A program made the translations under genes and the position numbers. A DNA stretch of 64,000 nt from Candidatus Omnitrophota bacterium (GTDB lineage: Bacteria; Omnitrophota; Gorgyraeia; B26-G9; JBDRCZ01): positions 15,947 to 79,946 of the forward strand of contig JBDRCZ010000017.1 of the NCBI GenBank assembly GCA_043821285.1. Direction: 5' to 3'. Positions within the stretch are counted from its first letter, which is position 1. Each line of letters starts with the position of its first letter. The notes under the pieces are model-generated. The model did not search any database. It was not told where the DNA came from and was given only the letters and a program-made list of their open reading frames with translations. This document shows positions 40,420 through 59,961 of this stretch, one piece after another.

Positions 40420-40447
40420 CTAAAAAATTGCCATAGGCAATTTTTTA
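40420..40447 (-). terminator. Terminator of giant gene C overlapping its stop codon
   Basis: Minus sense GCAATTTAA-AAAATTGCC-TAT-GGCAATTTTTT: 10-bp A/T-flanked stem. The stop-codon region GGCAATTT can alternatively pair with AAATTGCC. Confidence 0.6.
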
Positions 40448-43400
40448 AATTGCCCGTTCAATTTCAAACAAATCTGCTATCTCTCTCTTCTCCAGTTTTG
40501 TATCTGATCCATTTATGCCTACCCTATAGCCAGTGTGTCTTTCTTGGGGAGCAACTATTAGAGAATAAAGAGCGTGTAGTAACAGCATATCAGAATCAGA
40601 AATATGAGGGTCTATATTTTTTGCTTCTAATATTGATTCATCATCGCTTATTATTTCTTGTATAATTGTTTTTACTATATCTCTATCTTCAGCTCTGCAT
40701 TTTTCATGAATTGCATTCAGACATTGTTCAAAAAATGGTCTGAGCATCATAAGCTGAACATTATCTTCTTGTGTATATGCATTGGCAACTGCTTTTGTAA
40801 CTGTTTCTAAAACAGTTTGCCGGTAATCTGGTCTTACCGTATAGATATTATCAAAAAAGATAAAAGTCCCGGCTGCGGCTTGTGGCATTATTGTCTTGTT
40901 TAGTATCTCATTAATAACATTTCGAGGAAAATATACTAAAATACTTAATAATTTATCTATTGTAGTATTACTTGGGGTTAAACCTTGCTGCTGGATCAAC
41001 TCTTGATATTTTCTTCCTATGATTCTATGCATAGATTCAAGACTTCTTCTATTTGCATTTATCATTAAATTATTTCCTTTAACTGCTGTAACTAAGTCCG
41101 TTAATTCGCTTCGTATCATTTCTCGTTCTTTCTCAAATACATCCGTATCTTCGTTCCTCTGAGATATAAATAACCCTAAAAATTCAAGTTCTAATGCTTT
41201 TTTAAAGGCATCTTCCGAAGTAAATGCGTTTAATCTAACAGTAATATTTTCTAACAACATTAGCTCAAAGCTGGTACCTTGACGAAAAATATGTTTTAGA
41301 AATTTTTCTGCATTAGTAAATTCGGGTGAAAAGATGATTTCTCCACTGACACCATCTACTGTTTTCTCCATCACTTCATTTATCAAATTACCTACTGAAT
41401 CTAAGTTGTGAAACTCGTTTAATCTATTTTCATCTTGTATAACAGCTCTTAAATAAACCTCCATTCTTAAAAGGTAATCAGCCAAAAAAACACCATCAAT
41501 TGCAAAACGTATATTTTCATTCGTATCTTGAGTTCTTGCAGTCAAGGCTTGATAAAGAAAATCATCTATATCGGTCAACATTCTATAAAAGATTTCCATT
41601 GCTGTTTCCTTATCCTGTTTTAGAGCAAGTTCGAGGACATTATTAACATTTGAAAAATCTCGTGAAATATACTCCTTAATTACATCACATAACGCATTGA
41701 ACAGTGGTTTTTTATCACGACGGTAAATAGCAAAACTTAGCCTAATAAATGCTGCTAATATCTCATGGGAATTAAATCCTGAATTTATTAAATAACTTTG
41801 CTCCTTTTCTATATAGATTGGTATAATTTTAGAAACGTCATATCCCGCAATAACTGTGTAAGCAACTGCAGCAAAAATAAGATTATGTGTTTCTGCATCA
41901 TGTTTAGGAATGTTTATTCGTTGTAAGATTTCTCCTAATACTTCTCCTGCCTCAGTAGTTCTCTCCTCTTTTCCTTCAATCTGCGCTTTTATTTTATTAG
42001 TAAAAAATTCAAAAACAAAATCAGGTTCTGCCTTAAGATACGCTTCTATTGTTTCCCAATCTGCTGCTAATAAATTACGCAGTTTTTGGATTTTATCTTG
42101 AACCACGATTAAGTTATTTCGTAGATTGCTTATTTTTTTCTGATTTTTTCTCGTTTGTTTTTGCTCTTTGTTTATGGTTTGCTGAATAGTTCTTTCATTG
42201 CTTTGGCGACGATTAAGTGCCTGCGTCCTTGTAATAACTCCTTCTAAGAGGATTGTTACTTCAGAGAGTTTTTCTCTACGCGCTTTTACTGCCGGGGGCA
42301 TATCTAAAAGTAGAGGTTCCCTTGTTGTCACTGGAGCCTGCCATGCTGGAAGTTCTTCAGATGCTACTTGCATAGCAGCAGCGCCTTGAAGGACCTGAGG
42401 ATATAATGAATGTTTTTGCATTGGGTCTTCAACTAACATAAGCTCACAACTTTGAGGCGGTTTGAGAGCATTAATTCTATTTTGGATAACTACTCCCAAT
42501 CCCCAAGCCCATTCTGCTTGACTTTTATATAAATCAACTAAGGCTTCAATATCCTCACTTTCGTTTATAATTGCGGTTATTCTCTCTACCAGAGGAGCCC
42601 GGCTGTTTCTGTTAGGATAGGTATTAAGCATTTGATATAATTCAGGTATATTACTTAAATCATTATAACCGAGTAATCTTTTTCTCAGTACCTCTGCTAT
42701 TACCCCCCTTATTTGCTTACATCCGTAGGTATATTTATTTATAGAATTATCTGTAAGTAAACGAAGCAGGTTTTCGATATCTAAGGAAAACACTTGCCTG
42801 ATAATACCGAAAATAATATATATTTCTACTTCAGAGTGAATTTTTTTACTAAGTAAATTAGCTAATGCAGCAAGTGCCTCGCCCCCCCATTTACTAACCA
42901 TCTCCTGAGCAATAGCTTGAGCTTGTGTTTTGTCATTATTTTCTGCTTGCTGACGTTTAAATCTATCGGAAATTGCGGTTAATCGTTCAATGCCATCTTC
43001 AATCGAAGAAACAGTTAGGTGTATTTCTGATATTTTTCCTTGAGAAGCAATACTATTACTTAATTGTGCGGCTGCTGCTTGCTTTGTTTTCTGGGGTAAC
43101 CTTGGATTTCGTGACCACTCTGAAAGCAAGCGATCATTTACTTCTGCTAATCTTTTTGCAGTGCTTAACGCCTTAATTCTATACCAAAGATAATTATTCC
43201 AGTATTCATCGTCCCATTCTTGGCTTAGATACACATCAACTAAGGCAACAATATCTTGATTATTTTTTATTATATGTTTCATCCTTCTTCTTGCCAGATC
43301 TTTAATGTCTTCGTTCGGACATAATGTTTCATTATTAATAACATAATATAATGCAGAAATACTTGTTACGTTTCGAGGAATGCTAACAGTTTTTATGATA

Positions 43401-46400
43401 ATTATGCTTTTAATCATACCTCTGGTAACTTCAGCTCCTTTAGTTTCTTGCTGATTCATCGCAGTATATAAATAAAATATTTCTGTAACAGACATTGAGT
43501 TAAGACAATTACCAAGTGCCGACATAGTTATTTCTATTGCTTCTTCATTAAGAAGATTCGTATCAATTTGCTCAGCAAATTGTTTAATAATTTCTAAAAA
43601 CTCATCTTTATCCTTTGTGTTATACATTTCTGTTATAATATTTTTAACTTCTTGAGGAGCGGATGCAATAAAGGCTTGTATTTCTTCGGGTGTCTGATAA
43701 TAATCAGCCAACTCTTTCTCCAGCTTTTCTATTTGTGACGCAATTGTCGTATCTAGTTCTGGTTTATTAATTCGCAGCCACTCTATTATTCTTTTTCTTA
43801 CTGTCCGATCTTGGATGCCAATCAATAATCCTAGTACATGCACTACCTCGTTTTCTAAACACATGTATTGTGACAAGATGTCGTTAAGTTCCGTATTCGC
43901 TGCATTGCTAAAGAATAGGTATATAGTACCAGCAATATGTTTTTGTATGCCCGTAAGTCTAAGGATTTTTTCACTCAAAATATTTCTTATGCTCGAACCC
44001 CAGCTTCTTTCTAAATATAATTCTACTGCTGTCTTTAAATTATCACATTCATTAACCAGTTCTCTTATTCTCATCCTTAGCAGTGCCCGGGTTCCTTCAT
44101 GGTACTCTCTATCATTGAGCAAATCTTGCAGTGGTTCGATACTAGCAATGCCTTGATATTCAGCAAGGCGCTGTTTGATCGCTTCTATTAATTGACTACT
44201 ATTGTCCCCATGATTTAACCTACGCAATAGTTCCTCTAAGGTGAGAGTTTTTATGGGGTCAAAATCTGCTAGTAGTTCTGCAAAAGTTACTTGATTATCA
44301 GAAGGCGCTGCAACTTCTCTTGTCGGGGGGGCATCCCTGTTGGTGTCGGCTCTTTGATTAGCGTTTCGCCATGCTGCTCTTAAGGCACGTGTATCTGACT
44401 GTGATGGTGGCTCTGGAAAATGTACCACCTGAGCTGCATTCGACGGAGCTGTTGTTCGTACAAACCTATCTGGAGGGGATAGTGATAGATCGAAAGCAGC
44501 TGCTAGTTTTTCTAATGAGTTTAGAGTCAAAGGGTTATTGTTTCCTGATGGAGGAACTGTATCTTTTGGTAAAGCAACTTCTGCTGTGTCAGTCCCTTCC
44601 TTTTCTGGTTGTCGCAAGTCACCTGATTGTAATGGTACGGTGTATGCTTGAGGGTTATTTTCTTTTTCCCTTTCCCTTTTCCTTTTCTTTCTTGCAATAG
44701 GAGGACTATCTGCTCTATATTGTTTACGTGCTTTCCTTTTCATTAATACAACTTTATCTTCTTCTTCATCATCATCATATTGGTCACTATCATCTATTGC
44801 ATTTATTAACTCCTCTATTATGAGCATTAAAGCAATCCGTATATTTTCTTCTGATAATTCACCCGAACCCTCTTGCATCAATTGCTCAATTTCTTCCTCT
44901 GACAAAGTTAAATCGTTTATAACACCAATGAGCTGTTCAATGATTTGACCATTCTCGTGTGCGCTTTCAATTATATTATCTATAGCATCTTTTAACGCTT
45001 CATGATATGTATCTTCATCAAGTAGTAAATAAGTTTTTACTAAAAAACTAAGATCTATTTCTAAAGCACTATTTCTCGTTGATCTTACGCCGGTACTACC
45101 AAGCAAGCATAGTAAACTAAATCCCCAAGCCAACCCCTTCCAAATAAAAAATGCCAGTGCATCTGGTCTTGCGGCAACAAAGTGTACTACTGGATATAAT
45201 AATCCTTCATGTCGTGCAAGAGAATTTATGATTGTAAATTCGATGTAGTCGATAATAATGAGCATAGCTGATTTAGCACCAGTAACCGCCTTTTTAACTA
45301 ATTCCCAAACATTTGGTATAAATTGTATCTGCGGTTGTATATATAAAGGAAAGGTCATTATTAAGGAAAGACCTAATATAGCGTGTATTGGTAAATGCCC
45401 TAAGTTTACACTAACCGGGATGCCCGTGATATTACTGATTACCTCTAATATAAAAGGTGCAATCAATAATAAAAAGAGGCCATTTATTAATGGATGGGAA
45501 TTCAGGGTAACACTCTTACCAGCATTACTTTCTTGATAAAATTCTCTTACCGCTCTATTTGTTTTTATTAAAGCACGTAAATCAATAATGATATTTCCAT
45601 TTCTATCTTTACGAAGGTCATGTTTATTTTCCTTGTCAGATAAAAATATCTTATCATCTTCTTTCACAATTTTATATTCCACGTTACCAATCCAAATAAT
45701 ATCATTTTCCCTGAAAGTTACTTCTTTCCTTAAAATATCAATGATTAATTCCTTGCTGTTTGCTTCGTTACGCAGAAGAATAGTATTACCAGCTATTGCA
45801 TATTTTGTATTATCTATCATTCTGTCTTGATGCCACCATGCTATTCTGAGTTTGTAACCATCACCCTTTCCCTCAGTTTTTATTTTTTTTAGACCATCTG
45901 TTGGGAAAAATTCTAACCGTTCTCGTAAACGCTGGATTTTAGTATTGTATTGTCTTATATCTAAAATTCGCTTGTTATGAATGTTCTGAATTACAGCTAA
46001 TAACTCGTTGTCCTTAATACTTGCTAATAATGCGCCATAAAAGGCCAGACCTAAGCTATCTACTCTTAAAACTATTCTTTCTATTTCTGTGTGTTTGTTT
46101 TTGTTAAATAGAGTTGTTAAATAATTAGCCAATATCAGTACAAATTCCCCGCCCCACCACTTTATAACCTCAACCAATTGACCAAGAGACTGCGGTGTAA
46201 TATTTTGATGTTCATTCAGGAGATTTTCAATAATTTGTAATACTGCAGAAACTGAATATACACCAAATTGTTCGGCCAAAGCTTTGATTATTGCCAATCT
46301 TTGCGTTTCATCAAAATTATTAAGATTAGCTTCTTTTTCTTTCATCATCTTAATATAATTTTCGGCTGAATCCCAATCTTGAGTAGACTTATTAGTATCC

Positions 46401-47536
46401 CAATACTGTACTGGTTTGCGATACACTGCTTTTGCTGCTACTAATATATTTTTTTCTTTCTCTGTAAGTGCGGTGTCATCATTTGTCCATATCCTAATCA
46501 TTCCGTGTCTTGGTGCTGTTATATAAAATGAAATTTTTGACGCAAGAAACTCTTCCCATTCTTCTGGAGAAGGCACAGTTGATAAATCAGCACGTAAACG
46601 TATAAAACGGTTATAGTTTTTATTTTCGTTATTAATTATGTCTGCCGGAAGCAGCCGCCGGCCAACATGAATTTCTATATTAGAGTTTTCTGGTATTGGT
46701 TGGGTATAACGGCTTCGATCAGGGGTTGAAACATTCCAGTAGTTTTGTGTTGATATACCAAATCTCAAAGATTCGTTATCTATTTTTATGCTCTCGGGAG
46801 CAAAAAACATCATCATAATTGCATGCGCAGGTAAACGTATTGCATCAATCCAGTAGTGAATTCCTTTACGATAACTATACTCAAGGATAATTTTAATACC
46901 ACGTTCAAACAGAACTTTTAATCCGGGTAAAAAGGCAATATTATTAAATACGCTGTTGGTATTTAATCTAAAGACTTCCATATCCCTGGGGACAGTAAGC
47001 ACTATTCGCGGAGACGCACCTTTAATATCTATTTTTCCATAAGTAGTAATTTCACTTTGCAAATCACGCGCCAACCCAAGCAAACTTAGAAAGTCAATTT
47101 CTTTTAGAACCGGGGGTATTCTTTCAACCGTCTCATCATCTGGACAAGGTATTTCTGGAATTTCCCTAATATTTAATTGATTGTTTTTTTTAGAAATTAC
47201 ATAAGAACGTTGTTTACCAGCTGCGCCTGTTGTTACAAACAATACTATCGAACCATCATTCGCAAATCTTTTCTCGCATGCATCAAACTCAAACTTATCT
47301 TTAATATAACTTACGCCAACATGTCCTTCTGCCCAAGTATATGCATCACTTATTTTTTTGTAAAGCATAATATTTTCTGCAAATAGAGGGTCATTTACTT
47401 CCAAAGGCGGGGCAAGATGGGTATGTAGACCTTTTAGATTGCCGCCGGCGGCCCATGAGATGTCTAAGCATAGAAAGGCATTGATTAATATTATGGAAAT
47501 TAGTCTAAAACAAATTGTACGTGTTAAATTATTCAT
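40445..47536 (-). CDS. Giant-family protein C (2363 aa): signal peptide, TM cluster, poly-acidic/poly-basic linker, helical-repeat C-terminal module paralogous to F, C-terminal FEIERAI
   Basis: N-terminus MNNLTRTICFRLISIILINAFLCLDISWAAGGNLKGLHTHLAPPL. DDSDQYDDDEEEDK ... RKKRKREREKE. C-terminal 700 aa align clearly with gene F, e.g. LIFAAVAYTVIAGYDVSKIIPIYIEKEQSYLIN versus LFAVIVYTFIAGGDVSKIILIYIEKEISYLIN. Confidence 0.7.
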   Translation of the reverse strand: MNNLTRTICFRLISIILINAFLCLDISWAAGGNLKGLHTHLAPPLEVNDPLFAENIMLYKKISDAYTWAEGHVGVSYIKDKFEFDACEKRFANDGSIVLFVTTGAAGKQRSYVISKKNNQLNIREIPEIPCPDDETVERIPPVLKEIDFLSLLGLARDLQSEITTYGKIDIKGASPRIVLTVPRDMEVFRLNTNSVFNNIAFLPGLKVLFERGIKIILEYSYRKGIHYWIDAIRLPAHAIMMMFFAPESIKIDNESLRFGISTQNYWNVSTPDRSRYTQPIPENSNIEIHVGRRLLPADIINNENKNYNRFIRLRADLSTVPSPEEWEEFLASKISFYITAPRHGMIRIWTNDDTALTEKEKNILVAAKAVYRKPVQYWDTNKSTQDWDSAENYIKMMKEKEANLNNFDETQRLAIIKALAEQFGVYSVSAVLQIIENLLNEHQNITPQSLGQLVEVIKWWGGEFVLILANYLTTLFNKNKHTEIERIVLRVDSLGLAFYGALLASIKDNELLAVIQNIHNKRILDIRQYNTKIQRLRERLEFFPTDGLKKIKTEGKGDGYKLRIAWWHQDRMIDNTKYAIAGNTILLRNEANSKELIIDILRKEVTFRENDIIWIGNVEYKIVKEDDKIFLSDKENKHDLRKDRNGNIIIDLRALIKTNRAVREFYQESNAGKSVTLNSHPLINGLFLLLIAPFILEVISNITGIPVSVNLGHLPIHAILGLSLIMTFPLYIQPQIQFIPNVWELVKKAVTGAKSAMLIIIDYIEFTIINSLARHEGLLYPVVHFVAARPDALAFFIWKGLAWGFSLLCLLGSTGVRSTRNSALEIDLSFLVKTYLLLDEDTYHEALKDAIDNIIESAHENGQIIEQLIGVINDLTLSEEEIEQLMQEGSGELSEENIRIALMLIIEELINAIDDSDQYDDDEEEDKVVLMKRKARKQYRADSPPIARKKRKREREKENNPQAYTVPLQSGDLRQPEKEGTDTAEVALPKDTVPPSGNNNPLTLNSLEKLAAAFDLSLSPPDRFVRTTAPSNAAQVVHFPEPPSQSDTRALRAAWRNANQRADTNRDAPPTREVAAPSDNQVTFAELLADFDPIKTLTLEELLRRLNHGDNSSQLIEAIKQRLAEYQGIASIEPLQDLLNDREYHEGTRALLRMRIRELVNECDNLKTAVELYLERSWGSSIRNILSEKILRLTGIQKHIAGTIYLFFSNAANTELNDILSQYMCLENEVVHVLGLLIGIQDRTVRKRIIEWLRINKPELDTTIASQIEKLEKELADYYQTPEEIQAFIASAPQEVKNIITEMYNTKDKDEFLEIIKQFAEQIDTNLLNEEAIEITMSALGNCLNSMSVTEIFYLYTAMNQQETKGAEVTRGMIKSIIIIKTVSIPRNVTSISALYYVINNETLCPNEDIKDLARRRMKHIIKNNQDIVALVDVYLSQEWDDEYWNNYLWYRIKALSTAKRLAEVNDRLLSEWSRNPRLPQKTKQAAAAQLSNSIASQGKISEIHLTVSSIEDGIERLTAISDRFKRQQAENNDKTQAQAIAQEMVSKWGGEALAALANLLSKKIHSEVEIYIIFGIIRQVFSLDIENLLRLLTDNSINKYTYGCKQIRGVIAEVLRKRLLGYNDLSNIPELYQMLNTYPNRNSRAPLVERITAIINESEDIEALVDLYKSQAEWAWGLGVVIQNRINALKPPQSCELMLVEDPMQKHSLYPQVLQGAAAMQVASEELPAWQAPVTTREPLLLDMPPAVKARREKLSEVTILLEGVITRTQALNRRQSNERTIQQTINKEQKQTRKNQKKISNLRNNLIVVQDKIQKLRNLLAADWETIEAYLKAEPDFVFEFFTNKIKAQIEGKEERTTEAGEVLGEILQRINIPKHDAETHNLIFAAVAYTVIAGYDVSKIIPIYIEKEQSYLINSGFNSHEILAAFIRLSFAIYRRDKKPLFNALCDVIKEYISRDFSNVNNVLELALKQDKETAMEIFYRMLTDIDDFLYQALTARTQDTNENIRFAIDGVFLADYLLRMEVYLRAVIQDENRLNEFHNLDSVGNLINEVMEKTVDGVSGEIIFSPEFTNAEKFLKHIFRQGTSFELMLLENITVRLNAFTSEDAFKKALELEFLGLFISQRNEDTDVFEKEREMIRSELTDLVTAVKGNNLMINANRRSLESMHRIIGRKYQELIQQQGLTPSNTTIDKLLSILVYFPRNVINEILNKTIMPQAAAGTFIFFDNIYTVRPDYRQTVLETVTKAVANAYTQEDNVQLMMLRPFFEQCLNAIHEKCRAEDRDIVKTIIQEIISDDESILEAKNIDPHISDSDMLLLHALYSLIVAPQERHTGYRVGINGSDTKLEKREIADLFEIERAI

Positions 47537-47853
47537 ATGTTAATACCCTGTTAGTTAATTCCAAATGTTCTAATTCAAGATTTAAAAATTCCAAGATTCC
47601 AGATTCTAAAATTATAAAATTCCCCGCTACAAGGTCGAAGATCCGCCATCGTATTAGTGAAGAACGCTGGCGAACAGGCAAATTCTCTAACCTTCGGCAA
47701 GTAAAACGTTTTGAATCGTTAAATCTTAAAATATTCAAATTTTGGAATTGTTTGTTTTATTCTTCTGTCTTCTATTCTCTACCTTCTGTTTTCTGCTTTC
47801 AATCAGCTGTATCAGTAAACGGTAAACTGCCTGCCTTCCATTAGGGAGGTAAA

Positions 47854-47881
47854 CTAAAAAATTGCCGCAGCAATTTTTTAG
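47854..47881 (-). terminator. Terminator of giant gene D overlapping its stop codon
   Basis: AAAAAATTGC-CGCA-GCAATTTTTT hairpin; minus sense ...GCAATCTAA AAAATTGCTGCGGCAATTTTTTAG. Confidence 0.6.
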
Positions 47882-50800
47882 ATTGCTTGTTCTACTGCCA
47901 ACATTTCATTCCACTCTAACTCTGTAAGTGCAGGGGGTTGTTTAGGCATTGTTGTCAATTGTCCTGGGTTATTATCATGAGGATCCAGTCTTTGCTGCTC
48001 TACAATCTTTATTGCTGCTTCAATAATCGCTGCAGTGTCCATCTTATGTGCACGGTATAATATCTCGTGACTTCTTGCGGATTGTCCCCAACCTTGGATT
48101 CCTAACGAAGTTACAGTTGAACCAGTTGTAAGCAGAGATGAAGTTACTACCTTACTTACTGCTCCGCTTAATATTTTTGGAGAAGCGTCTTGAACAGTAA
48201 TTATTGGCACTCCCCGTTCAAGAAGAGGTGGTAAAGCTTCATCGATTAAATCCAATCTGGTCAAATTTATTACTTTTGCGGTAATATCTTGACTTTCCAA
48301 TTGTTCGCTCGCGGCAATTGCAAATTCCACCATTGCTCCGGCAGCAATAATAATAATATCGCTATTTTGTCCGTTTTCTCTTGGATCTTTAATTACATAA
48401 GCACCTTGTTCTGGACTGGGATTTTCTCCTCTATTTAAAACTGGAACATTTTGACGGGTAAGCTGAAGATAAGAAGGTCCTTTACCATCTAATGCCCTGT
48501 GCATAGCAAAATCTACTGCTTCTTCAGCCTCACGGGCATCTGCAGGTATAAAACCAGTCATTTTTTGCAAAAAAGAAATATAGCGAATAACGCCAGCAAC
48601 GATTACTGACTGATGAGTAGAACCGTCTGGCCCAACGCCTAAGCCGGCATGACTTAACGCAACAATTACCGGTAGTTTTGCCCGGGCAATCACAATTATT
48701 TGACTAATCATTCGGTTAGCAAAACAATCAAAGGTTGCGATAACTGGTATCTTACCATATAATGCTAATCCAGCAGCAATTCCTGCCATTGCTTGTTCTC
48801 TTACTCCGGATGGAACGTATCTTCCATTGGTGTTATGACGAGAAAAAATGCCAAAGTCCCTAGCAAACCAATTCAGTCTTGTAGAACTGGCAATGTCCGC
48901 GCAGAAAGCAATAATCTTTTCGACGCGTTTTCCCCAGTCAAGCATCCTGTTACCAAAACCATCACGTGTAGCAAAATTCCTATTTGCTTGGTATCTAATT
49001 TCTGCCGGTGTTTGTAGCATTGTCATTTGAACCGGCTCTGGCTCTTGTGTTTGTTTAATGTTGCTATAAATAAGCAGATTGAATTCCCCAATCTTATAAG
49101 GAACCATTCCATTCAATGCTTCCATAATTGTTGTGGCCATGATGTGTTCATCAAAACCCCGGGTAATAATTAAAACAGGTTTTCCTGTATTATCCTTGTT
49201 TAGCTGTTCAAAGGTTTGACCTAAGATTTCAGCCTGTTCTTGATTATTATTAGCATTGAGCTCAATCACTCTCCAACCATAAGCTTGCCAAATATTAACT
49301 AATTCCGTGTTTGTCTCTGAAGCTTGAAGGACTAAGCAGAGATTATCTATGCCATTGTGTGCGGCGAATCTAGCTGTTTCTGCAAACTGACCTTCTCTTT
49401 CTTCTTTTTCCGTGGCTAAAGCAATAACTCTGCCAGATGCTGTATCCATTTTAGCTCCAAAAGCTATACCTGCGGCCAGAGAAAGACGCATACCCGCAGG
49501 GAATATTTCTTGAGGACTAAAATCTATTTTCATAAGCCCGTCCGTGGGTTTTTCTTTTCCATCAACTAATTCTTTTGCTACTTCTATTATATTTTCAATA
49601 TCCTTGTCACTCATGGACCAAACAACGGAACCTGCGGTTTTAGAAGATGAAGTTACAGTCCTGCTTACCGCATCACCTAAACATACTGGCAATCCATCAT
49701 AAATTGTAAGAATACGGCTTCCTGGCTCAATATACTCTAAGAGCTCACTTCCTGCACCTAATGAGTCTAATTGCGTAACATTTATGATCTTAGTCATCGT
49801 ACCTTGTGATTCTAACTCATTACTGACTTTTATGGTTTGATGAAGACTTTTACCTGAAGAAATAAGAATAACCCTCTTTTTTGCCGTGTCCCACCCTTCA
49901 GATTGACTTATAACATAGGCACCTTGCTCTGGCTGGGGATTTTCTCCTCTATCTATAACCGGAAGATCTGCAGAACTTAAACGAATATAAGAAGCAGTGT
50001 ACTCATCTGGGATATTAAGTGATGTAGGGGCTTTATTTGTTATTTTAGCCAATAATAATGCATTTTTTATTGCCATATCAGTCAACTCATTAGTTTCATT
50101 AGGATCCCCTGGTTCTAACGCAATTACATTATGCATCAGGTCCATAACTCCTGGGGTAAAACTTAACTCTTCAGATTCAGCCGCTAAAATAAACGGTACC
50201 CTTGCCTGAGCATTTATCCTTAATTGGTCTAACATTTTCATCGCATCATTTTCCGGCAGAAAGACAATCGGCAGCATACCCGAATAACCAAACCCAGCAG
50301 CAAAACTGGCTAAGTGCTGTTCTCTATCCTCAACTAAGAAACATCGCTCGATGAGTTTATTTCTTATATCTTCATCAGTAATCTGTGCAATAAATTCATC
50401 AATAAATCTTTGTTTAGAATCGGAATTATTAAAAATAAATACTATCCGTTCATCTTTTTCTGCCCACTGGAGTAGTCTATTTTTAAATGCAACAGATGGA
50501 GAGACTTCCTCATCCTGTGCATAGTTGGTTCTATCTGGTATTGTTGTCGTGTCTGTTTTTTGTAGAGTACTCTCTTTTGATAAATTGTTTTCTTCTTGTT
50601 CTGTCATTTGGTTATCTGAAATAAATCTATCTACATCTGTTGAAAATCCATAAAAATTCATTTGTTGACTAATATTTTCAATTGTGTTTTCTATTTGGGG
50701 GATAGCTTCAGATAGTTCTTTATCATTTAATGCTCTACCGTGAAACGCGGTTGGATCATCTTCCATAAAATCTACGCCTTTACCTTTTTTTGTCTTGGCA

Positions 50801-53553
50801 ATAATTGCTGTTGGCTTGTTTTTAATGTTTCTTGCTTCTTCACAAGCCGCGATAATTTCTAATGGTTCATGGCCATTAATTTCAATAACATGCCAGCCAC
50901 AACCTCTCCACGAACCTGCGACATCCGCACTATCTACTTCTTTAGTCAAGCTATCAATTTGTGCGCCATTAGCATTTACAAATAAGGTAAGATTATCTAA
51001 CCCTAATTCCGCAATATGCCTGGCAGCCTCTGCATATTGTCCTTCCTGTTCTTCCCCATCACCGGCAATAGCAAAGACGTTGGAGTCACGTCCATGCATT
51101 TTAGCTAGAAGCGCCATACCCGCGGCATTGGAGAGTCCCATACCTAAGGAACCGGTCAAGGCTTCTATACCACGAGTACAAATCCAGTCAGTATGTCCAG
51201 GAAGTCCACTGTTTAACTCTCTTAAATGGGATAATTGCTCTTTTGAAATATAGCCAAGTTTAGCTAAAATAGAATAAACTGCTGGCGCTATATGCCCTTC
51301 AGAAATAACTAACCGGTCACGGTCTGGCCAGCGCGGGTCATTTGGTGTATGATTCATAATCCGCGTTCCATCGGAATATCGTCCAAGATATAAAGTGACC
51401 AGTATCTCAGCCGCAGAGAGCGAACCTCCTGGATGTCCTGAACCAGCTATATTAATCATCTCCAGAATATCATTACGGCACATTTCTGCGATTTTCTTTA
51501 ACATCAAGCTTTGGCGCTGCTGTTCTATATAGTCTTTTCGCCAAAAAGCACCAATTATCAAAACACCAACAAGAAATATAGTATATGCGATCAATAAATG
51601 TATTGGAGATTGAAACAGTGTCATTATTGGTATTGAAATGGTTTCAAAACGATGGCTAAATGTTTTTAGTAGTTCGACAAAAGCTAATAAAATCGCACCA
51701 ATTGTGCCCAATAAGGCATAGGGGTTGAATTGTCGAAGGGTTAAATCTTGAGGAAATATATCTGAATTGTGGGGTGAAACATTAGAATCATCCCCTTTCC
51801 TTTTTAAATATTCTATTGCTCCATTAACCACCAAAAGAGCCCTAAAATATGCCTCTAAATAATCTTCTGCTGTTGTAAGAATAATTTTTTGATCATCTAA
51901 TCCAGAACGTGCTATCGGGTGACCTAAAATGTTTTCGTTTTCAGCCATTCTTTGTGAAGCAATCTTCCGCATATGTGTCCAGTTATGAAGTTGATTTACG
52001 CCTTTCAGCGGTAATAAGAGAGGGTTTCTTATACCCTGTGAGGTATAAAATTTTTCAACATCCTCGTCTTTGAGACCTGTCTGCTCTGGCACAAAATGAG
52101 GAGTATCACTAGGATATGCAGCCTCTGCCAAAAAAACATTTGCTGTTATTCTCCCCGAAGAATAATGTTCTGTTACACATTTTAGGTAAAAAACCAATGT
52201 TCCATTTAAAGCAGAGTCAATAAAGCATACTTGCGATGTATTATTATCAATAATTCCTTCATCAATTAACTGCTCATAAGTTTGTTTTGCTTGTTCAGCA
52301 AAAACCGTGTTTGTTTTTAATGTTTCTTCAAAGGATTGTCTTAATTGTGGATAGAAATTTTCCGGATCTCCTTGTTCTGTAGTATTGCGGCGAACTTTTC
52401 GCAATGTGTCTTCAATAATCTTAAAATTGTCGCGTTTTCTTTTTTCCGGAGTAGGATGATCATCTCCTATATAACCTAACATTTTTCGATCAAGATAAAA
52501 TACAAAAGAATTATCAGGGGGAGCCCCTTTTGTCAAAAGACTCAAATAATACTCGGACTCATAGTAAATTGCTCCATCACGTGCTAAATAAACTCTTCGT
52601 CCTTCAGCAGGTAATTGTTCTAATAAATAAGGGATGATTTTAGCTGTGCCTATTAACCACATAAAAGAATCTTTTTTTTGTCTTGAAGTCAAAAAATGGC
52701 AAAGGCTTCTTAGCTTTATATTCAAACTTCCAGTAAATAAGCCTTGATTTCTTACACCTTGTTCTGTCATTACCAATAACTCTTGCTCTCTTCTTCGTAA
52801 TTCTTCTGCTATTTCTACGTTACTTCTCCATCTCAATTGGTCTGGTTTAAGAACTTGATAATGCGTGCGTACCTCATGCCCTTCGATCGGGCTTAAAAAA
52901 TGTATCGGAAATGTTGGACTTATTTCTGGTACATTAATAGAGGTTAACATCATTTCTAAATCCATGGCTATACCTTCTTCGCCGAGTGGATGTCTTAATA
53001 CTGATAATGCGCGCTCTTTAACTTTATCATTGGGGTCTTCCAATATTATTTTTTTCAAAAATTCAACAACCTTTGTTTTAGCTGTCTCACTTTTGTTCCC
53101 AACAATTCCCAAGAGCCGTATTAAATTACTGCGTGGATTGTCTAACACAACACCACCACGATAAAGAAGATCATCAGGGTCAATAATGGTTGGATCATCC
53201 CAAGCAGCGATTAAGGCATTTATCAGTATAATAGCATCGAGACTTAATAATTTTGGAGCTTCATTTCGTCTCCAAATATTAAACTGCGAAAAAGTTAATC
53301 TTAAAACTTGCGTTAGTTCTTCCCTTTTTATCTCTATAGGGTACTTATTTACTGATTGTGTAGATATACCAAGTGTATTTTGTTCAAAAGGCTCTGTAAG
53401 TGAAGACTTACTTATCTCTAAAGGAGGCGAGAGGTGGGTGGACAAATTTTTCAAATTACTATTTGCCGCCCATGAAATGTCAAGACATAAAAAAGAGTTG
53501 ATTAATATAAAGGCTGTTAGTTTGAATAAAATGTCCCGTTTTATTTTTTTCAT
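47878..53553 (-). CDS. Giant-family protein D (1891 aa): signal peptide, HEAT-like N-region, TM cluster, two tandem transketolase-like modules, C-terminal AVEQAI
   Basis: Module 1: SGHPGGSLSAAEILVTLYLGRY ... IAGDGEEQEGQYAEAARHIAELGLDNLTLFVNANGAQIDS (TPP/PP domain) plus a Tkt-C-like segment RGENPQPEQGAYVISQSEG. Module 2: degenerate PP domain (ATEKEEREGQFAE...), then a Transket_pyr-like FATRDGFGNRML...GVREQAMAGIAAGLALYGKIPVIATFDCFANRMISQIIV...GPDGSTHQSV and a Tkt-C-like RGENPSPEQGAYVIKD. Confidence 0.75.
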   Translation of the reverse strand: MKKIKRDILFKLTAFILINSFLCLDISWAANSNLKNLSTHLSPPLEISKSSLTEPFEQNTLGISTQSVNKYPIEIKREELTQVLRLTFSQFNIWRRNEAPKLLSLDAIILINALIAAWDDPTIIDPDDLLYRGGVVLDNPRSNLIRLLGIVGNKSETAKTKVVEFLKKIILEDPNDKVKERALSVLRHPLGEEGIAMDLEMMLTSINVPEISPTFPIHFLSPIEGHEVRTHYQVLKPDQLRWRSNVEIAEELRRREQELLVMTEQGVRNQGLFTGSLNIKLRSLCHFLTSRQKKDSFMWLIGTAKIIPYLLEQLPAEGRRVYLARDGAIYYESEYYLSLLTKGAPPDNSFVFYLDRKMLGYIGDDHPTPEKRKRDNFKIIEDTLRKVRRNTTEQGDPENFYPQLRQSFEETLKTNTVFAEQAKQTYEQLIDEGIIDNNTSQVCFIDSALNGTLVFYLKCVTEHYSSGRITANVFLAEAAYPSDTPHFVPEQTGLKDEDVEKFYTSQGIRNPLLLPLKGVNQLHNWTHMRKIASQRMAENENILGHPIARSGLDDQKIILTTAEDYLEAYFRALLVVNGAIEYLKRKGDDSNVSPHNSDIFPQDLTLRQFNPYALLGTIGAILLAFVELLKTFSHRFETISIPIMTLFQSPIHLLIAYTIFLVGVLIIGAFWRKDYIEQQRQSLMLKKIAEMCRNDILEMINIAGSGHPGGSLSAAEILVTLYLGRYSDGTRIMNHTPNDPRWPDRDRLVISEGHIAPAVYSILAKLGYISKEQLSHLRELNSGLPGHTDWICTRGIEALTGSLGMGLSNAAGMALLAKMHGRDSNVFAIAGDGEEQEGQYAEAARHIAELGLDNLTLFVNANGAQIDSLTKEVDSADVAGSWRGCGWHVIEINGHEPLEIIAACEEARNIKNKPTAIIAKTKKGKGVDFMEDDPTAFHGRALNDKELSEAIPQIENTIENISQQMNFYGFSTDVDRFISDNQMTEQEENNLSKESTLQKTDTTTIPDRTNYAQDEEVSPSVAFKNRLLQWAEKDERIVFIFNNSDSKQRFIDEFIAQITDEDIRNKLIERCFLVEDREQHLASFAAGFGYSGMLPIVFLPENDAMKMLDQLRINAQARVPFILAAESEELSFTPGVMDLMHNVIALEPGDPNETNELTDMAIKNALLLAKITNKAPTSLNIPDEYTASYIRLSSADLPVIDRGENPQPEQGAYVISQSEGWDTAKKRVILISSGKSLHQTIKVSNELESQGTMTKIINVTQLDSLGAGSELLEYIEPGSRILTIYDGLPVCLGDAVSRTVTSSSKTAGSVVWSMSDKDIENIIEVAKELVDGKEKPTDGLMKIDFSPQEIFPAGMRLSLAAGIAFGAKMDTASGRVIALATEKEEREGQFAETARFAAHNGIDNLCLVLQASETNTELVNIWQAYGWRVIELNANNNQEQAEILGQTFEQLNKDNTGKPVLIITRGFDEHIMATTIMEALNGMVPYKIGEFNLLIYSNIKQTQEPEPVQMTMLQTPAEIRYQANRNFATRDGFGNRMLDWGKRVEKIIAFCADIASSTRLNWFARDFGIFSRHNTNGRYVPSGVREQAMAGIAAGLALYGKIPVIATFDCFANRMISQIIVIARAKLPVIVALSHAGLGVGPDGSTHQSVIVAGVIRYISFLQKMTGFIPADAREAEEAVDFAMHRALDGKGPSYLQLTRQNVPVLNRGENPSPEQGAYVIKDPRENGQNSDIIIIAAGAMVEFAIAASEQLESQDITAKVINLTRLDLIDEALPPLLERGVPIITVQDASPKILSGAVSKVVTSSLLTTGSTVTSLGIQGWGQSARSHEILYRAHKMDTAAIIEAAIKIVEQQRLDPHDNNPGQLTTMPKQPPALTELEWNEMLAVEQAI

Positions 53554-53756: not shown

Positions 53757-55227
53757 ACTTTGTTAAAAATCAGGTCTTTTCAAAAAAATCATTTACGTAA
53801 GTCGTGAAAACTCATAACTTATGTAATTTCAATACTTTACGTTAATTTTTTCCTTGACAATATCCACAACTCCTGCTATGGTATATAGTTGTAATCAAAC
53901 CACCGTAACACACAACAGGAGGTGGATATGGGTATTTTTAATCTCACTATTTCGGTAATCAATAATTTCTTATTTCGTTTTAAACCTGCCTTCTCAAAAA
54001 AACAATTTATCGTTTTCTCCTTCCTGATCTATGCTTTGTTTAAAGACTACAAGAGAAATTCCCTTTATGCCCTCGCCTCTAAAACTCCAATCAACTATCA
54101 GGCTTGTCAGTACTTCTTATCTGAAGGAAAATGGAGTATCGATGATCTTAATAATATAAGGTTAAAAATTATTGAACATCAAAGAACTACTTCTGCTACT
54201 TCCTCCGGCGTCTTAGTTATTGATGATACTTCTCCTAAGCCTTTTGCTAAAGCTACCGCCGGTGCTAAACGTCAACACTGTGGTGTCTTAAATCGTGAAG
54301 AAATCTGTAATGTTGCTGTATTCTCTGCCTTCGCCTCCAAAACTAAACGCTTCCCGATAAACCTTAAATCTTATCTCCCCGCTGAAAAATTCTTATTTGG
54401 CAAAGAGGATGTAGATTTTAAAAGTAAGCTCGATCTTGCCCAAATATTAGTCGATGATGCCTTAGAAAGAAAAATTAAATTCTCTTCCCTCGTCATAGAT
54501 GCATGGTATGCTCAGTCTTCACAATTCCTTGAGTTTGTTCACTGCCAGAGAAAACTGCCCTTCATTGGTGAATTAAAGTCCAATCGTAACATCTTCTTTT
54601 ACCATCCGCTAAAGCGGAAACACTGCTGGATCCAGCAGGATGAGCTGGTGAAACTCATCAAAAAACATTATCCGCATAAGTGTAGGTTTTTTACCTCCAC
54701 GAGCAAAGATGGTAAGAAGAAGTCTTGGGTCTTCTACACCTTCAAGGGACTGCTGAAAGATTGTTCTGTTCCCTTAAGCATAGTGGTGATCTTTGGTAAG
54801 TGGGATAATCAGGATGATAAGAATGTTCATATCCTTATCTCCAATCAGACCCGCCTGGCTACTAAGACCATCATTTCCACCTACCTGCTTCGTTGGGGAA
54901 TAGAGCTTATCTTCAGGGAGCTCAAGGATGTCTTCTCCTTTGACCAATACCAGGTTAGACATACCAAACAGATCGAACGTTACTAGACACTATGCCTTAT
55001 TGCATGGAGCCTGTTATATTGGGTCAAACAAAATGCCTATCTTACCAAAATCCTTGAGCATAAACCTGCTACCTTCTATGACTACAAACAGGCCATTGAC
55101 TCCTTACTCCTTTATGATGCTCATCAGTCTCTTTCAAAGAACAGTCATCTTGCTCAGAAATATTTTAAAATTAAATCGGATAATTTTAAACAGCAAATCG
55201 CTCGCGTTGCCTGATTTTTAACAAAGT
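53757..55227 (+). mobile_element. IS element (IS4/IS701-like DDE family), 1471 bp, perfect 18-bp terminal inverted repeats ACTTTGTTAAAAATCAGG
   Basis: Left repeat at 53757-53774 and its exact reverse complement at 55210-55227 (extendable to about 24-29 bp with 2 mismatches). Single transposase ORF inside. Inserted within the leader of giant gene D, between D and the terminator of E. Target-site duplication not clearly resolvable (CTAT/TAT). Confidence 0.7.
53922..55212 (+). pseudogene. DDE transposase of the IS, interrupted by an in-frame TAG at 54984-54986
   Basis: Track ORF 53922..54986 ends ...YQVRHTKQIERY*. The same frame continues TLCLIAWSLLYWVKQN...QQIARVA to a TGA inside the right terminal repeat (about 55212). 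The Y-x2-R-x3-E ... K tail typical of IS4-type transposases straddles the TAG. TAG is a genuine stop elsewhere in this window. Confidence 0.5.
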
Positions 55228-55285
55228 CCTGTTCTATCATTTAAAACATATAGTAGACAGCAAACTGTACACTGTAAACGGTAAA

Positions 55286-55313
55286 CTAAAAATTGCCGAT
55301 GGCAATTTTTTTA
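55286..55313 (-). terminator. Terminator of giant gene E overlapping its stop codon
   Basis: AAAAATTGCC-GAT-GGCAATTTTTTT; minus sense ...GCAATCTAA AAAAATTGCCATCGGCAATTTTTAG. Confidence 0.6.
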
Positions 55314-58300
55314 GATTGCCTGTTCCACGGCCAAAACCGTATTCAATCCTACTCCTTCAAGTAGCGGAAGTAAAGACATCAATTTCTGCATAGGCTTTTC
55401 ACCCTGCTGTCTGCAACCATCTGGAGTGTCTTTTCTTTCTCCATCTTCCATGAAACTCTGAGAAGCTAAATATCTCATTAGTTCTCCTGTTTGATTAGGA
55501 TTGGTTACTCTTACTATCGTAATATTTTCAACTTTAAGAACTAATCGATCATTACCTCCACTCCAAAATTCATCACCAATATATATGTCAGCTGCTGCAT
55601 CTATTACAGCCGCGGCTTTATCTTCTAAGTTTTCAGTATGTTCTTCTACAAAATCTCCCATTTTTTCATCATAGATGAATTTATGATACCCCGGTTCAGA
55701 GGATATGGTATAAAGAACAAGATTTTTTAATAAACCCTGCTTATCTTTCGGGATAGCAAATAATACCTGGCCTTTTACATTAAATATGTTTCCGCCAGTA
55801 ATTATTCTTAGCTTATATCCAACCTCAAGTAAGTTAAGGAATGCATCCAGATTATCTTCTCCGATTATTCCCCAGTAAGGAACAAGTGTGCCATCCATAT
55901 CTATTCCTATAACCTGAATTTCTTCTAACGGTACATGGCCATTTATAATATCATGGACATTTAATGGAGTATTTTGGGTTGTATCTACTGGGGATAGCGT
56001 GCCAAGTGTTTGTTTTGGGACAAAACTGTTTTCTTGCTCACGCTTTGCTATAAATTTACGGTGTGCAAGGACAATAAAGGTAGAAAGTGCAAGACCTTTA
56101 CCCTGCAATTCTTCTACTGTTTCACGGTTATCTTTAAGCTGCGGATCTAAATATGCCGCCAATAATTGCATAAGCAAAGGTTCATTAAGTAATAAATCTA
56201 CTCCCACGTTAACTTCTTGATAAAGTTTTTTTGCCTTTACATAGTCTGAAAAAAGTTCTCCTAATAACGAGGATTCATTGGTTAATTCCGCATACAAATT
56301 ATCGAATATTTCTTCTACAGATATTAATATATCATTGTACATTTCATCAGAAAGATGGCTTCTTAAAAATTCTTCTTGTTCTTGTACTTTCCACGGAGGT
56401 AGATATTTACTTCTCAAACCGTATTGATTTAAACATTGCTCTAACTTATAAAAGATTATTTGTTCAAGAACACTCTCATTATCAACTTTACTGATCAAAT
56501 TTTCTGGCAAGCGGTTTTTAATAAGATTTTTAAGCAGTGTACCAGTCGCCGATGTACTCAATCCGGTTCCATCAGCAAGTGAGTTTGGTGTCCATTCAAA
56601 AGGCAGCCATTCTGACACAACTATTCCGTGAAGATACTCTCTTCCAAAAGATATTCTTCCTCTTGTTCCTAAACCAAAAGTGTGAAGTTGAATGCCAAAT
56701 TGTTCGTTAAGCTTAGCATTTGTAACAGTGGAAGAGTCAGAATTTTTAAGAAGAGCAGCGAAATGTGCTTCAACCTCTGCTAATGAATCAAGCAAACACC
56801 TTGCTTTATGAAGAGTTACACCAGTTTCAACAATATCATCAATTATAAGAACGTTGCGGTGTTCTCTGAGATACTCGACGACCTTTGTATCATTTAGAAA
56901 TAACCGCAGGTCTTCAGGAGAATCTAAAGAGTATACATCTCTTTCAAAACCCAAACGCACCCTTTCAGCTTCTGTCAATAATGACCAAATTATTGTTGTT
57001 AAATTTAACTTTTGAGTAATAATCCAACTTTGGAATTCAGGTATTTCCTTATTAAATAAGTTATTCGCTTTTAACTGAGTAAGCAAAATTTCCAATGCTT
57101 TGGCAATTGGATCAGCTCCTTTTGAGGGAAAGATAACTAAATTTATATCGTGTTGGATTAAATATTTAACAATAGGAAGAAGTATAGGAGCAAATTGCAA
57201 AACTTGTATGTCTGTTCCTAAAGAATCTATGTCTCCAATTTCTTCACCTAATGCAGCTTCGACCGCCTGCCGAAGCTTTCCAGTATATCTGGAGCGATAA
57301 GGACTACGCAGATATCCTTCAATCGTTGGCAAGTTTTTTGCGATCTCCTTTTCAAGCTCTTCTTCAGCCCTCAAAAACATCTGATGCCCTGTTTCTGTCC
57401 TGAATAAAGTTTCACCCAGAAAATTGCCGTCATCTTTGCCTGATTTTTCATAAAGTCTATACTCTTCTTCAAGGCGCTCTTTATTAGTTTTAAATCTGGC
57501 TCGGATCTGTTCAGGTGTTATTTCTATTCCCGCAGCTTCTAAATCAGCAATAATCCCTTGATAAGTACACATAAATAATCTGTCTGCCTCACGCCATACT
57601 GTTATTAATCTATAAAAAGAAGAAGCATTAGCAAAAGGCCCTTCAAAATTAAACAAAAACTGTCCTTTTTCATATAAAGAAGTATCAACACCCATATTTC
57701 TAAGCTCTACTAAGGCCTGTTCAATAGAAGGATTATCATGAGCTTTTACCACACCACAGATTAAATTTACATTTACATCAGTTGCACTTAAAATACCGGT
57801 TGAAATTAATTGTTGGATTAATTCCCTAATCATTTCGGGGGCTTTTTTCATATGCGCAAGCCTAAACGCGATTGTGTTCTGCGCTAATTCTTTTGCCTTT
57901 AACGAATTTCTCTGTTCAATTTTCTTGCGTATTTGAATAATTCTTGCCCGTGAGCCTTCTAACTTGGCGTACCCAATATCATGTAATAAGGCTAATATTG
58001 CTGCGTTTTTAAATTCTTCATAGGTAAAATCTTCTCCTAATCCAATCTGCACCGCGTTCTCTAAGACTTGAGTATGATGATTTACAGGGTTGCCATTTGC
58101 TCCAGCTTTAAAATGAGGTAAGGCGCTCCAAAAAAGTGTGAAGAGAATATTTTGAATTTCTTGTTTTTGCTGGTCTGTAAATGTGCGGTCTTTTTCAATG
58201 CGGCTTAGTGCATTTTCCAAATTCTGAACTGCTAAACTTTTCTTACACTGAACAAGATAGTAGCCATTCTTTTCTTCAATTACTGCTTCTAATCCATTGT

Positions 58301-59589: not shown

Positions 59590-59933
59590 GGGTTTGGGGA
59601 AATTTTTTTTGATTTTGTGATTTCTATGCTTATTGTTTTAACTATTTGGTATTAAAAAAGATATGGCATAGAAAATTAACAACAGCATTATTTAGGCAAG
59701 AATTGATTATATTTTTATTAAAGAAATAAATTGTAAGAGAAAATAATTATTACGATTAGATTTTATTGATTCTAAAATTTTAAATAAATTTTAACTTTAT
59801 TTTTCACCACAGAAAACACTGAGCCCACAAAGAAAAACTTGATACAAATCATACAAATATTTACATGCATAGCCTTCTTCCGTATAATCTGATTCTGCCT
59901 GCCTCCGGTAGGACGGTAAACAGTAAACGGTTA

Positions 59934-59961
59934 ACAAAAAGTTGCCATAGGCAACTTTTTA
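59934..59961 (-). terminator. Terminator of giant gene F overlapping its stop codon (covarying stem)
   Basis: AAAAAGTTGCC-ATAG-GCAACTTTTT. Relative to the C, D and E terminators, the A:T pair is replaced by G:C on both arms, a compensatory change. Confidence 0.6.

Follow-up and report, generated by a model that had tools for sequence, protein, structure and literature searches.

We analyzed a 64-kb window (the whole stretch of DNA considered here) of a metagenome-assembled genome (MAG) from a Candidatus Omnitrophota bacterium, with a focus on gene D, an open reading frame (ORF) on the minus strand at positions 47878..53553. Gene D starts with an ATG codon, encodes 1,891 amino acids followed by a stop codon, and has a reading frame that is open over 5,676 nt without a break. 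The encoded protein is identical to the NCBI entry 'MAG: transketolase C-terminal domain-containing protein [Candidatus Omnitrophota bacterium]' on an 86-kb contig. Its layout consists of a signal-peptide-like leader, an orphan domain of ~550 residues, and two hydrophobic helices, followed by two tandem transketolase (TK) modules (Table 1). An earlier reading of the bare sequence, referred to here as the original prediction, placed the modules behind a signal peptide and transmembrane (TM) helices, and hydropathy supports this, with a leader segment at residues 8 to 30 and TM-like segments at residues 611 to 629 and about 649 to 671. The orphan N-terminal domain had no significant match in Pfam, NCBIfam, or PDB sequence searches, and a single-sequence AlphaFold2 (AF2) model of it reached a predicted local distance difference test score (pLDDT) of 34.9. 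A word-index query with this domain failed to return D itself and is uninformative.

Both modules of D are supported as TK homologues by profile searches. In Pfam, Transketolase_N matches residues 686 to 949 (E = 5.4e-51), Transket_pyr matches residues 1527 to 1704 (E = 2.9e-35), and Transketolase_C/C_1 (PF22613/PF02780) is found in two stretches, of which the first is sub-threshold when taken alone; D passes the Pfam gathering scores. The NCBIfam model NF004559 covers residues 677 to 1307, which is the near full-length first module (293.3 bits for module 1 run alone), and module 2, when run alone, aligns to positions 130 to 625 of the 627 in the model (197.3 bits). The duplication is also visible within D, where residues 804 to 1314 align to residues 1354 to 1817 at 30% identity (E = 1e-50). 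Module 2 starts only at the equivalent of the GxLGxG helix; what is left of its diphosphate-binding (PP) domain, the PP2 remnant, is therefore without about the first 115 to 130 positions of a TK PP domain (about 130 to 145 residues of module 1). Among solved structures, the top PDB match for the first PP domain (PP1) is 6yak, the N-terminal chain of a split TK (E = 6e-63), and the top match for the second pyrimidine-binding domain with its C-terminal domain (Pyr2-C2) is 6yaj, the C-terminal chain of a split TK (E = 1e-29), with ordinary TKs ranking next. The two tandem enzyme units of the original prediction, which depend on thiamine diphosphate (TPP), are thus borne out by profile matches for both modules (PF00456, PF02779, and NF004559) and by the internal repeat, and every motif quoted for them is found in the translation of D (SGHPGGSLSAAEILVTLY, GDGEEQEG, NANGAQIDS, GVREQAMAGIAAGLA, and GPDGSTHQS). 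Against the equivalog model for 1-deoxy-D-xylulose-5-phosphate synthase (DXS), TIGR00204, D scores 142.5 bits, where the cut-off is 465.95. By these profile scores, D is a divergent member of the TK family with a new architecture rather than a standard TktA equivalog.

We mapped functional residues by aligning both modules to E. coli TktA (663 aa). In the reference sequence used, 16 of the 16 published catalytic residues tested fall at their published positions. The eight residues of the PP set (H26, H66, H100, G114, D155, G156, N185, and H261 in E. coli numbering) are all present in module 1, at the positions listed for PP1 in Table 1 in the same order. None of the eight remains in module 2, where each is deleted or substituted and the N-terminal third of the domain is missing. 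The Pyr set (R358, S385, E411, F434, F437, H461, D469, H473, and R520) has the reverse distribution, with 9/9 residues present in module 2 (listed for Pyr2 in the same order) and 8/9 lost from module 1, which keeps only E1078, the equivalent of Glu411. The original prediction had described the first PP domain as well preserved and the second as degenerate beside an intact Pyr domain, and the residue counts agree with it on both points. D carries the features by which a TK (EC 2.2.1.1) is recognized: the GDG...N(x)G PP motif with four histidines, the activating glutamate, the phenylalanines and histidines of the Pyr domain, the Arg358/Ser385/Arg520/Asp469 set, and the C-terminal domain. PP1 and PP2 have almost the same sequence in the helix that follows the lost GDG motif, EE(R/Q)EGQ(F/Y)AE; in TKs, this helix bears interface glutamates.

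The significance of this pattern follows from how TKs build their active sites. Work by Lindqvist and colleagues in 1992 reportedly showed that each site combines the PP domain of one subunit with the Pyr domain of the other. Given this arrangement, the pattern in D yields exactly one complete site per chain. The TK homodimer has two active sites, which lie at the subunit interface (PMC6834573); D departs from a homodimer with two equivalent sites in that, as read from the alignment, each chain holds a single complete set of PP and Pyr residues. On the same residue evidence, the complementary pattern is the only pattern of decay that leaves a working site within a single chain. All 17 of the 17 residues of one complete site, including the TPP-binding residues and catalytic histidines whose conservation was to be checked, are present across PP1 and Pyr2. 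The retention of phosphate-binding and stereo-specificity residues argues for ordinary sugar-phosphate substrates.

We searched for homologues with phmmer, using residues 672 to 1871 of D against 1.84 billion representatives, and examined the best 150 of 17,883 matches. Within these 150, the tandem single-site order, PP(live)-Pyr(dead)-[C]-PP remnant(dead)-Pyr(live)-C, occurs in only three proteins: D, P0004, and P0051. P0004 is a protein of 3,487 aa from the complete chromosome of Omnitrophota bin140 (CP070797.1), and it is 51% identical to D over one stretch of 1,168 residues. P0051 (1,573 aa) is a more distant tandem TK, with about 28 to 33% identity, that has lost most of C1. In a multiple alignment, the three proteins have an identical complementary residue pattern, and the 17/17 site residues are found in P0004 and P0051 as well; by eye, S1557 of D aligns to a Glu (TES motif) in P0004. 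Identity between D and P0004 is 53% for the dead Pyr1, 54% for the dead PP2 remnant, and 55% for the live Pyr2, compared to 18 to 32% for the linkers. Judging from this comparison, the dead domains of D are under constraint and are as conserved as the live ones. Conserved dead domains and a retained interface helix are what would be expected if the dead halves serve as the structural partner of the live site. A neighbor-joining tree of the Pyr-C regions places the doubling before the split of D and P0004, and it does not tell internal duplication apart from fusion of two paralogues.

The original prediction considered a TK within a large leader-bearing protein to be very unusual. This holds for the tandem single-site form, which is rare, but D is not a one-off: about 20 further long proteins (1.2 to 5.4 thousand residues) among the best 150 matches each carry one TK module, which by eye is fused to transaldolase-like, kinase-like, or other regions. 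Where long TK-bearing proteins have a named source, the annotation is Omnitrophota in 6/6 cases. The single TK modules of P0006, P0017, and P0025 are altered at the equivalents of R358, H461, D469, and R520. The best ordinary TK relative of D among the matches listed is P0005 (621 aa), with 46% identity. Scans of genomes and metagenomes with an alignment specific to the tandem form returned only CP070797.1 and one weak match. A word-index search with full-length D returned only D and its neighbor E and missed P0004 despite 95 shared exact 5-mers; therefore, the absence of matches in that search is weak evidence. The literature searched yielded no earlier account of a single-site TK in tandem or pseudo-dimeric form, or of a TK in Omnitrophota.

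We modeled residues 672 to 1871 of D with AF2, using an alignment of 61 rows that is deep for module 1. The model has a mean pLDDT of 84.2 and a predicted TM-score (pTM) of 0.89. Regionally, pLDDT exceeds 90 in Pyr1 and C1 and is 85 to 95 in most of the PP2 remnant, with low values mainly in linkers. From the way pTM is defined, 0.89 across 1,200 residues implies a low predicted error between the modules; freely oriented modules would give ~0.6. The model thus suggests that the two modules have a confidently predicted mutual arrangement, the compact two-module assembly that the original prediction proposed to look for. The best Foldseek matches are TKs that each cover half of the model (TM-score 0.80 normalized by the target, against 3mos, and 0.42 by the query). 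Together with the residue table and the two homologues of identical pattern, this compact model supports the likeness to pseudo-dimeric enzymes that the original prediction had drawn.

Gene D lies in a block of six giant genes (A to F) on the minus strand at 29833-63891 (29.8 to 63.9 kb), each with its own stop codon, while positions 1 to 25 kb of the window hold a plus-strand housekeeping region that includes genes for ThiC, GMP synthase, DnaE, HisRS, AroB, and others. Table 1 collects the features of D and its surroundings.

Table 1. Features of gene D and of its surroundings, with positions in the window
Feature	Residues	Position (strand)	Description
Leader of D	1-56	53386..53553 (-)	Basic n-region MKKIKRD; h-region ending ...CLDISWA-A; then conserved NLKxLxTHL(A/S)PPL box; common to giants A, B, C, and E
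Orphan N-domain	57-610	51724..53385 (-)	No family or fold assigned
Hydrophobic segment 1	611-629 (PYALLGTIGAILLAFVELL)	51667..51723 (-)	Kyte-Doolittle 1.91
Hydrophobic segment 2	649-671 (about; ..LLIAYTIFLVGVLIIGAFW)	51541..51609 (-)	Kyte-Doolittle 2.48; followed by K/R-rich RKDYIEQQRQSLMLKK; 4 K/R in next 15 residues
PP1	686-950	50704..51498 (-)	Intact diphosphate-binding domain; H707, H754, H787, G801, D832-G833 (GDG), N862, H938; PF00456
Pyr1	1016-1200	49954..50508 (-)	Degenerate pyrimidine-binding domain; of the residues checked, only E1078 kept
C1	1201-1315	49609..49953 (-)	First TK C-terminal domain; PF22613/PF02780 sub-threshold on fragment; internal alignment
Inter-module linker	1316-1350	49504..49608 (-)	pLDDT 34-55 at model residues about 634-677; 18% identity to P0004
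PP2 remnant	1351-1485	49099..49503 (-)	Begins at GxLGxG equivalent; GDG replaced by TEK, NxG by SET; interface helix EEREGQFAE kept
Pyr2	1526-1705	48439..48978 (-)	Intact pyrimidine- and substrate-binding domain; R1530, S1557, E1586, F1608, F1611, H1635, D1643, H1647, R1700; PF02779
C2	1706-1850	48004..48438 (-)	Second TK C-terminal domain; PF22613 at residues 1717-1832, and PF02780
C-terminal tail of D	...NEMLAVEQAI-COOH	47881..47910 (-)	Motif common to all six giants of the window
Hairpin after D		47854..47881 (.)	12-bp palindrome AAAAATTGC...GCAATTTTT and T-run; overlaps stop codon; terminator-like
Giant C		40445-47536 (-)	
Giant E		55311-59036 (-)	Leader, then SAM-dependent methyltransferase domain at residues about 118-236; weak phosphoribosyltransferase and HAD-like matches further on
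Giant F		59959-63891 (-)	No leader as called; TTG start 109 nt from window end
Leaders of giants A to E		53386-53553, 58869-59036, 47369-47536, 39414-39581, 32662-32820	
C-termini of the six giants		29836-29862, 33144-33170, 40448-40474, 47881-47907, 55314-55340, 59962-59988 (-)	
Hairpin/repeat regions downstream of stops		About: D 47760-47880; C 40330-40447; E 55200-55313; F 59840-59961	
DDE_5 transposase gene		53922-54986 (+)	Between D and E, 368 bp upstream of the D start codon
IS200-like Y1 transposase gene		27148-27954 (-)	Just outside the giant block; candidate REP-associated tyrosine transposase (RAYT)
T2SSE-type (type II/IV secretion) ATPase gene		11321-12718 (+)	N-terminal PilZ; lies upstream of the giant block by about 17 kb; no other gene of secretion type seen in the window

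The original prediction assigned D to a repeated surface-protein family. What the giants have in common is a leader of ~55 residues (A to E) and a C-terminal tail, but the bodies of the neighbors are unrelated to that of D. The only similarity between bodies in the block is a domain of ~590 residues in C (residues 1734 to 2297) and F (residues 288 to 874), with 36% identity (E = 4e-98) and no Pfam match. Giant F may be truncated or mis-started. The common leader has a basic n-region, an h-region that runs to ...CLDISWA-A, and a GNLKxLxTHLAPPL box. Across its codons, the ratio of nonsynonymous to synonymous substitution rates (dN/dS) is about 0.05 to 0.2 and synonymous sites are saturated, which indicates that the peptide is constrained and was not recently copied. 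By eye, two other readings of the leader were rejected: a lipobox at the conserved Cys, where AFLC misfits [LVI][ASTVI][GAS]C, and a Tat signal, for which the twin arginine is missing. A profile search with the leader found one extra protein only, P0003, a leader-only ORF of 67 aa (MNNLTRTIWFRLTAIILVNAFLCLDIAWAAVGSLKSLHTHLAPAIRL..., locus tag ABH952_06340) on another contig of 36.6 kb; this ORF probably represents a family member that was cut short, in the same MAG or a sister one. At the P0051 locus (L004:1202-24722), each of six large orphan genes in a row encodes a signal-peptide-like segment at its start, with [FL]L[AST]PP about 10 residues further on. A signal made of a signal peptide (SP) and a LAPP box may be phylum-wide.

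Before their stop codons, giants A to F end in FIEQAI, IAEQAI, EIERAI, AVEQAI, AVEQAI, and AIEQAI, respectively, with the consensus ...Φ(A/I/E)(V/I)E(Q/R)AI-COOH. The string EQAI was observed five times, compared to 0.24 expected, and always at the extreme C-terminus. Synonymous codon variation in the tails points to constraint on the peptide, and the EQAI tail may be a C-terminal signal for sorting, secretion, or protease recognition. A C-terminus of the form Φ-x-[AS]-A-COOH is found in several further long TK proteins with a leader. Overall, the leader box and the C-terminal tails suggest a two-ended sorting signature.

Directly after the stop codons of C, D, E, and F is a hairpin, AAAATTGCC-TAT-GGCAATTTTTT, with a compensatory change in F; giant A has a different hairpin after its stop codon, and giant B has none. 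A second repeat, GTTTACCTCCCTAACGGGAGGCAGGCAGTTTACCGTTTAC, which resembles repetitive extragenic palindromic (REP) elements, follows the hairpin in C, D, and F. Long TK proteins outside the window (P0004, P0017, P0044, P0066, P0072, P0074, and P0144) carry lineage-specific motifs at module borders. In P0004, [SCT]S[PA][VILM] occurs 11 times compared to 0.8 expected, once at 6 residues before the TK, and SS[PA]Φ lies at module borders of P0004 and P0017. In P0072, G[LV]E[EQ] occurs seven times compared to 0.24 expected and flanks the TK, and GLEE borders are found in P0044-P0074. These border motifs could be linkers or sites of polyprotein processing; SS[PA]Φ and GLEE are absent from the giants of the window.

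Given the residue pattern, the homologues, and the predicted structure, we propose that D is probably a membrane-tethered, single-polypeptide, pseudo-dimeric transketolase with predicted activity. A short-type fused TK with the order PP-Pyr-C, like the 621-aa P0005, would have been doubled in tandem, after which each copy would have lost the catalytic half that the other kept. The two modules would pack together as the subunits of a TK dimer do, a geometry that we infer. The live site would pair PP1, which supplies ligands of the TPP diphosphate and Mg2+ as well as His707, His754, His787, and His938, with Pyr2, which would contribute Glu1586 for cofactor activation, His1635, His1647, Asp1643, and the phosphate binders Arg1530, Ser1557, and Arg1700. 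The symmetry-related site, formed by the PP2 remnant and Pyr1, would be dead and kept as a structural counter-half. The predicted chemistry is TPP-dependent transfer of C2-ketol units between phosphorylated sugars, with one TPP per chain, and the leader, orphan N-domain, and hydrophobic helices would tether the enzyme to the cell membrane.

Several observations weigh against this proposal. Whole D scores 478.8 bits against NF004559 and misses the equivalog cut-off of 488 bits, as does an in-silico chimera of PP1 and Pyr2-C2 (415.8 bits). Only two rows of the AF2 alignment extend over module 2, and the PP1-Pyr2 contact is inferred from the model. The 64-kb window holds no other TK and no transaldolase. 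In addition, the location signals of D conflict: the Sec-like leader and the even number of TM segments would put an enzyme of TPP and sugar phosphates outside the cytoplasm, whereas the K/R distribution around the helices and the leaderless homologue P0004 speak for the cytoplasmic side. Beyond these points, the site could be assembled between chains, with PP1 of one chain and Pyr2 of another forming a domain-swapped dimer or chain within an oligomerizing membrane scaffold. TKs are obligate dimers (PMC6834573), the flexible inter-module linker of 35 to 45 residues would permit swapping, and pairing in cis and in trans is not separable from sequence data alone. We nevertheless consider such an assembly unlikely, since AF2 returned a compact single chain (pTM 0.89), covalent linkage should bring a large gain in effective concentration for cis pairing, and the dead Pyr1 and PP2 are conserved as though they pack against the live halves. 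The degeneracy of half of each module, the missed equivalog cut-off, and the altered substrate-binding residues of P0006, P0017, and P0025 would also fit a pseudoenzyme or binding scaffold that keeps the TK fold to bind sugar phosphate, TPP, or a partner without catalysis. However, D keeps every residue of one canonical site, among them the Glu that activates TPP, the full set of six His, and the residues for phosphate binding and stereo-specificity, and such full retention is not expected without catalysis. This reading is therefore quite improbable, and the scaffold or moonlighting role raised in the original prediction is likewise not favored in view of the full canonical catalytic set. Because the sequence of D comes from a MAG and a transposase gene lies 368 bp upstream, an artefact also has to be considered, whether mis-assembly, a sequencing error that joined neighboring genes, or a pseudogene in decay. 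The uninterrupted frame of 5,676 nt, the recurrence of this six-domain order on the complete chromosome CP070797.1 and in a third MAG, and the constraint on the dead domains make this explanation very hard to credit.

Which side of the membrane the TK of D faces is a separate matter, and we judge an exported or surface-facing TK and a cytoplasm-facing one to be about equally probable. The original prediction called D a secreted or membrane protein; the leader and the two TM-like segments are consistent with this, but 'secreted' was overstated given that the topology signals conflict. One specific form of export is possible, although we hold it short of probable: a host-directed enzyme with a true Sec leader, perhaps with the EQAI tail as a dedicated sorting signal, that acts on host-derived sugar phosphates in the periplasm, at the surface, or in a contacted host cell. 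This alternative concerns location only and leaves the one-site chemistry unchanged. The leader of D has an n-region of charge +3, an h-region of ~20 residues, and an SWA-A site, and it is under strong purifying selection (dN/dS 0.05 to 0.2); with two hydrophobic segments in between, the TK would lie on whichever side the N-domain does; and in P0051 and many single-TK long proteins, the leader at the N-terminus is the sole TM segment. For Omnitrophota giant proteins, published predictions likewise locate glycolytic enzyme domains extracellularly, with 39% of long Omnitrophota proteins carrying both an SP and TM segments, and Omnitrophota have been proposed to be predatory or parasitic. On the other side, the cytoplasm is where TPP, Mg2+, and sugar phosphates occur, protein E has the same leader in front of an S-adenosylmethionine (SAM)-dependent methyltransferase, and by eye similar signal-peptide-like leaders stand before regions resembling ATP-dependent kinases in other long proteins. 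P0004, the closest homologue among the matches listed, has no leader, and all its TM segments are C-terminal to the TK. The positive-inside count (4 K/R after TM2, compared to 2 in the loop) puts the TK flank inside, and no secretion-system genes adjoin the giant block. A further and more doubtful idea is that the leader with its SP and LAPP box and the EQAI-COOH tail mark a dedicated, undescribed Omnitrophota sorting route that carries cofactor-dependent enzymes of cytoplasmic type across the membrane or into an attached host; no description of an Omnitrophota sorting signal was found in the literature searched. If such a route exists, its cargo would be a one-site TK and a SAM methyltransferase here and TK-transaldolase-kinase chains elsewhere, host metabolites would feed a part of pentose-phosphate chemistry that runs outside the cytoplasm, and the covalent single-site TK would be an adaptation to a lone tethered molecule without a partner subunit.

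The known system closest to D in family terms is the short-type fused TK (NF004559/PRK05899.2-5; about 620 aa, e.g., P0005), which shares with D the PP-Pyr-C unit, the catalytic residues, and the family-typical motif LPV(L/I)DRGxNPxPEQGAYVI, and whose model NF004559 is also the best family model for D. Unlike the short-type enzyme, D has two half-dead units per chain, with one site per chain compared to two per homodimer, carries a leader, an orphan domain, and TM helices ahead of these units, and falls below the equivalog cut-off. Among solved structures, the best matches for PP1 and Pyr2-C2 belong to the split-chain TK of Carboxydothermus hydrogenoformans (6yak/6yaj), which is a precedent for the PP part and the Pyr-C part as separate evolutionary and structural units. 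The split TK assembles as a heterotetramer with two live sites. It consists of two polypeptides, whereas D is one continuous ORF that has a single live site and, in addition, two dead halves. Homodimeric TKs (E. coli TktA 1qgd/2r8o, yeast 1trk, and human 3mos) have the same fold, and all their catalytic and substrate residues are found across PP1 and Pyr2 of D; they have two symmetric sites, whereas in D the second site cannot exist. DXS is a member of the same TPP-enzyme family, but D falls far below the DXS models and keeps TK-specific residues. According to Xiang and colleagues in 2007, the active site of DXS is said to be formed by the PP and Pyr domains of one chain. A one-chain site would thus arise by tandem duplication in D and by domain rearrangement in DXS. 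The chemistry and fold of D are those of a known enzyme, and its tandem single-site architecture, as deduced from the sequence, is new.

In Omnitrophota giant proteins, central-carbon and glycolytic enzyme domains are fused into large proteins with SPs and TM segments, and the authors of the topology predictions for these long proteins voice doubts about the side on which the enzymes lie (West-Roberts et al. 2023, bioRxiv 10.1101/2023.11.21.568195; bioRxiv 10.64898/2026.06.07.730766). D resembles these giants in its phylum, in carrying a metabolic enzyme within a leader/TM protein, and in posing the same puzzle of membrane side. The giants ('Archaeovorin'-type) exceed 10 to 30 thousand residues and have numerous TM helices and a divergent SecA-DEAD domain, whereas D has 1,891 residues, two internal TM-like segments, and no SecA match in Pfam. 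Neither of the two papers mentions transketolase or describes the tandem single-site TK, the LAPP-box leader, or the EQAI tail.

These comparisons indicate what D may offer. It would be a natural, conserved TK in which evolution has deleted the second site and retained the structural shell. Half-of-the-sites behavior and communication between active sites have been reported for homodimeric TKs and long debated (PMC6834573); a covalent one-site TK would allow a direct test of whether the second site of a TPP enzyme is required, and D would also offer a monomeric TK scaffold for biocatalysis. The two short, strongly constrained terminal signatures, the leader box and the EQAI tail, could serve to identify sorting machinery. 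For the phylum, D would add TK, which belongs to the pentose-phosphate pathway, to the central-carbon enzymes found inside large Omnitrophota leader/TM proteins, and it sharpens the question of the side of the membrane on which the multi-enzyme proteins of these bacteria work.

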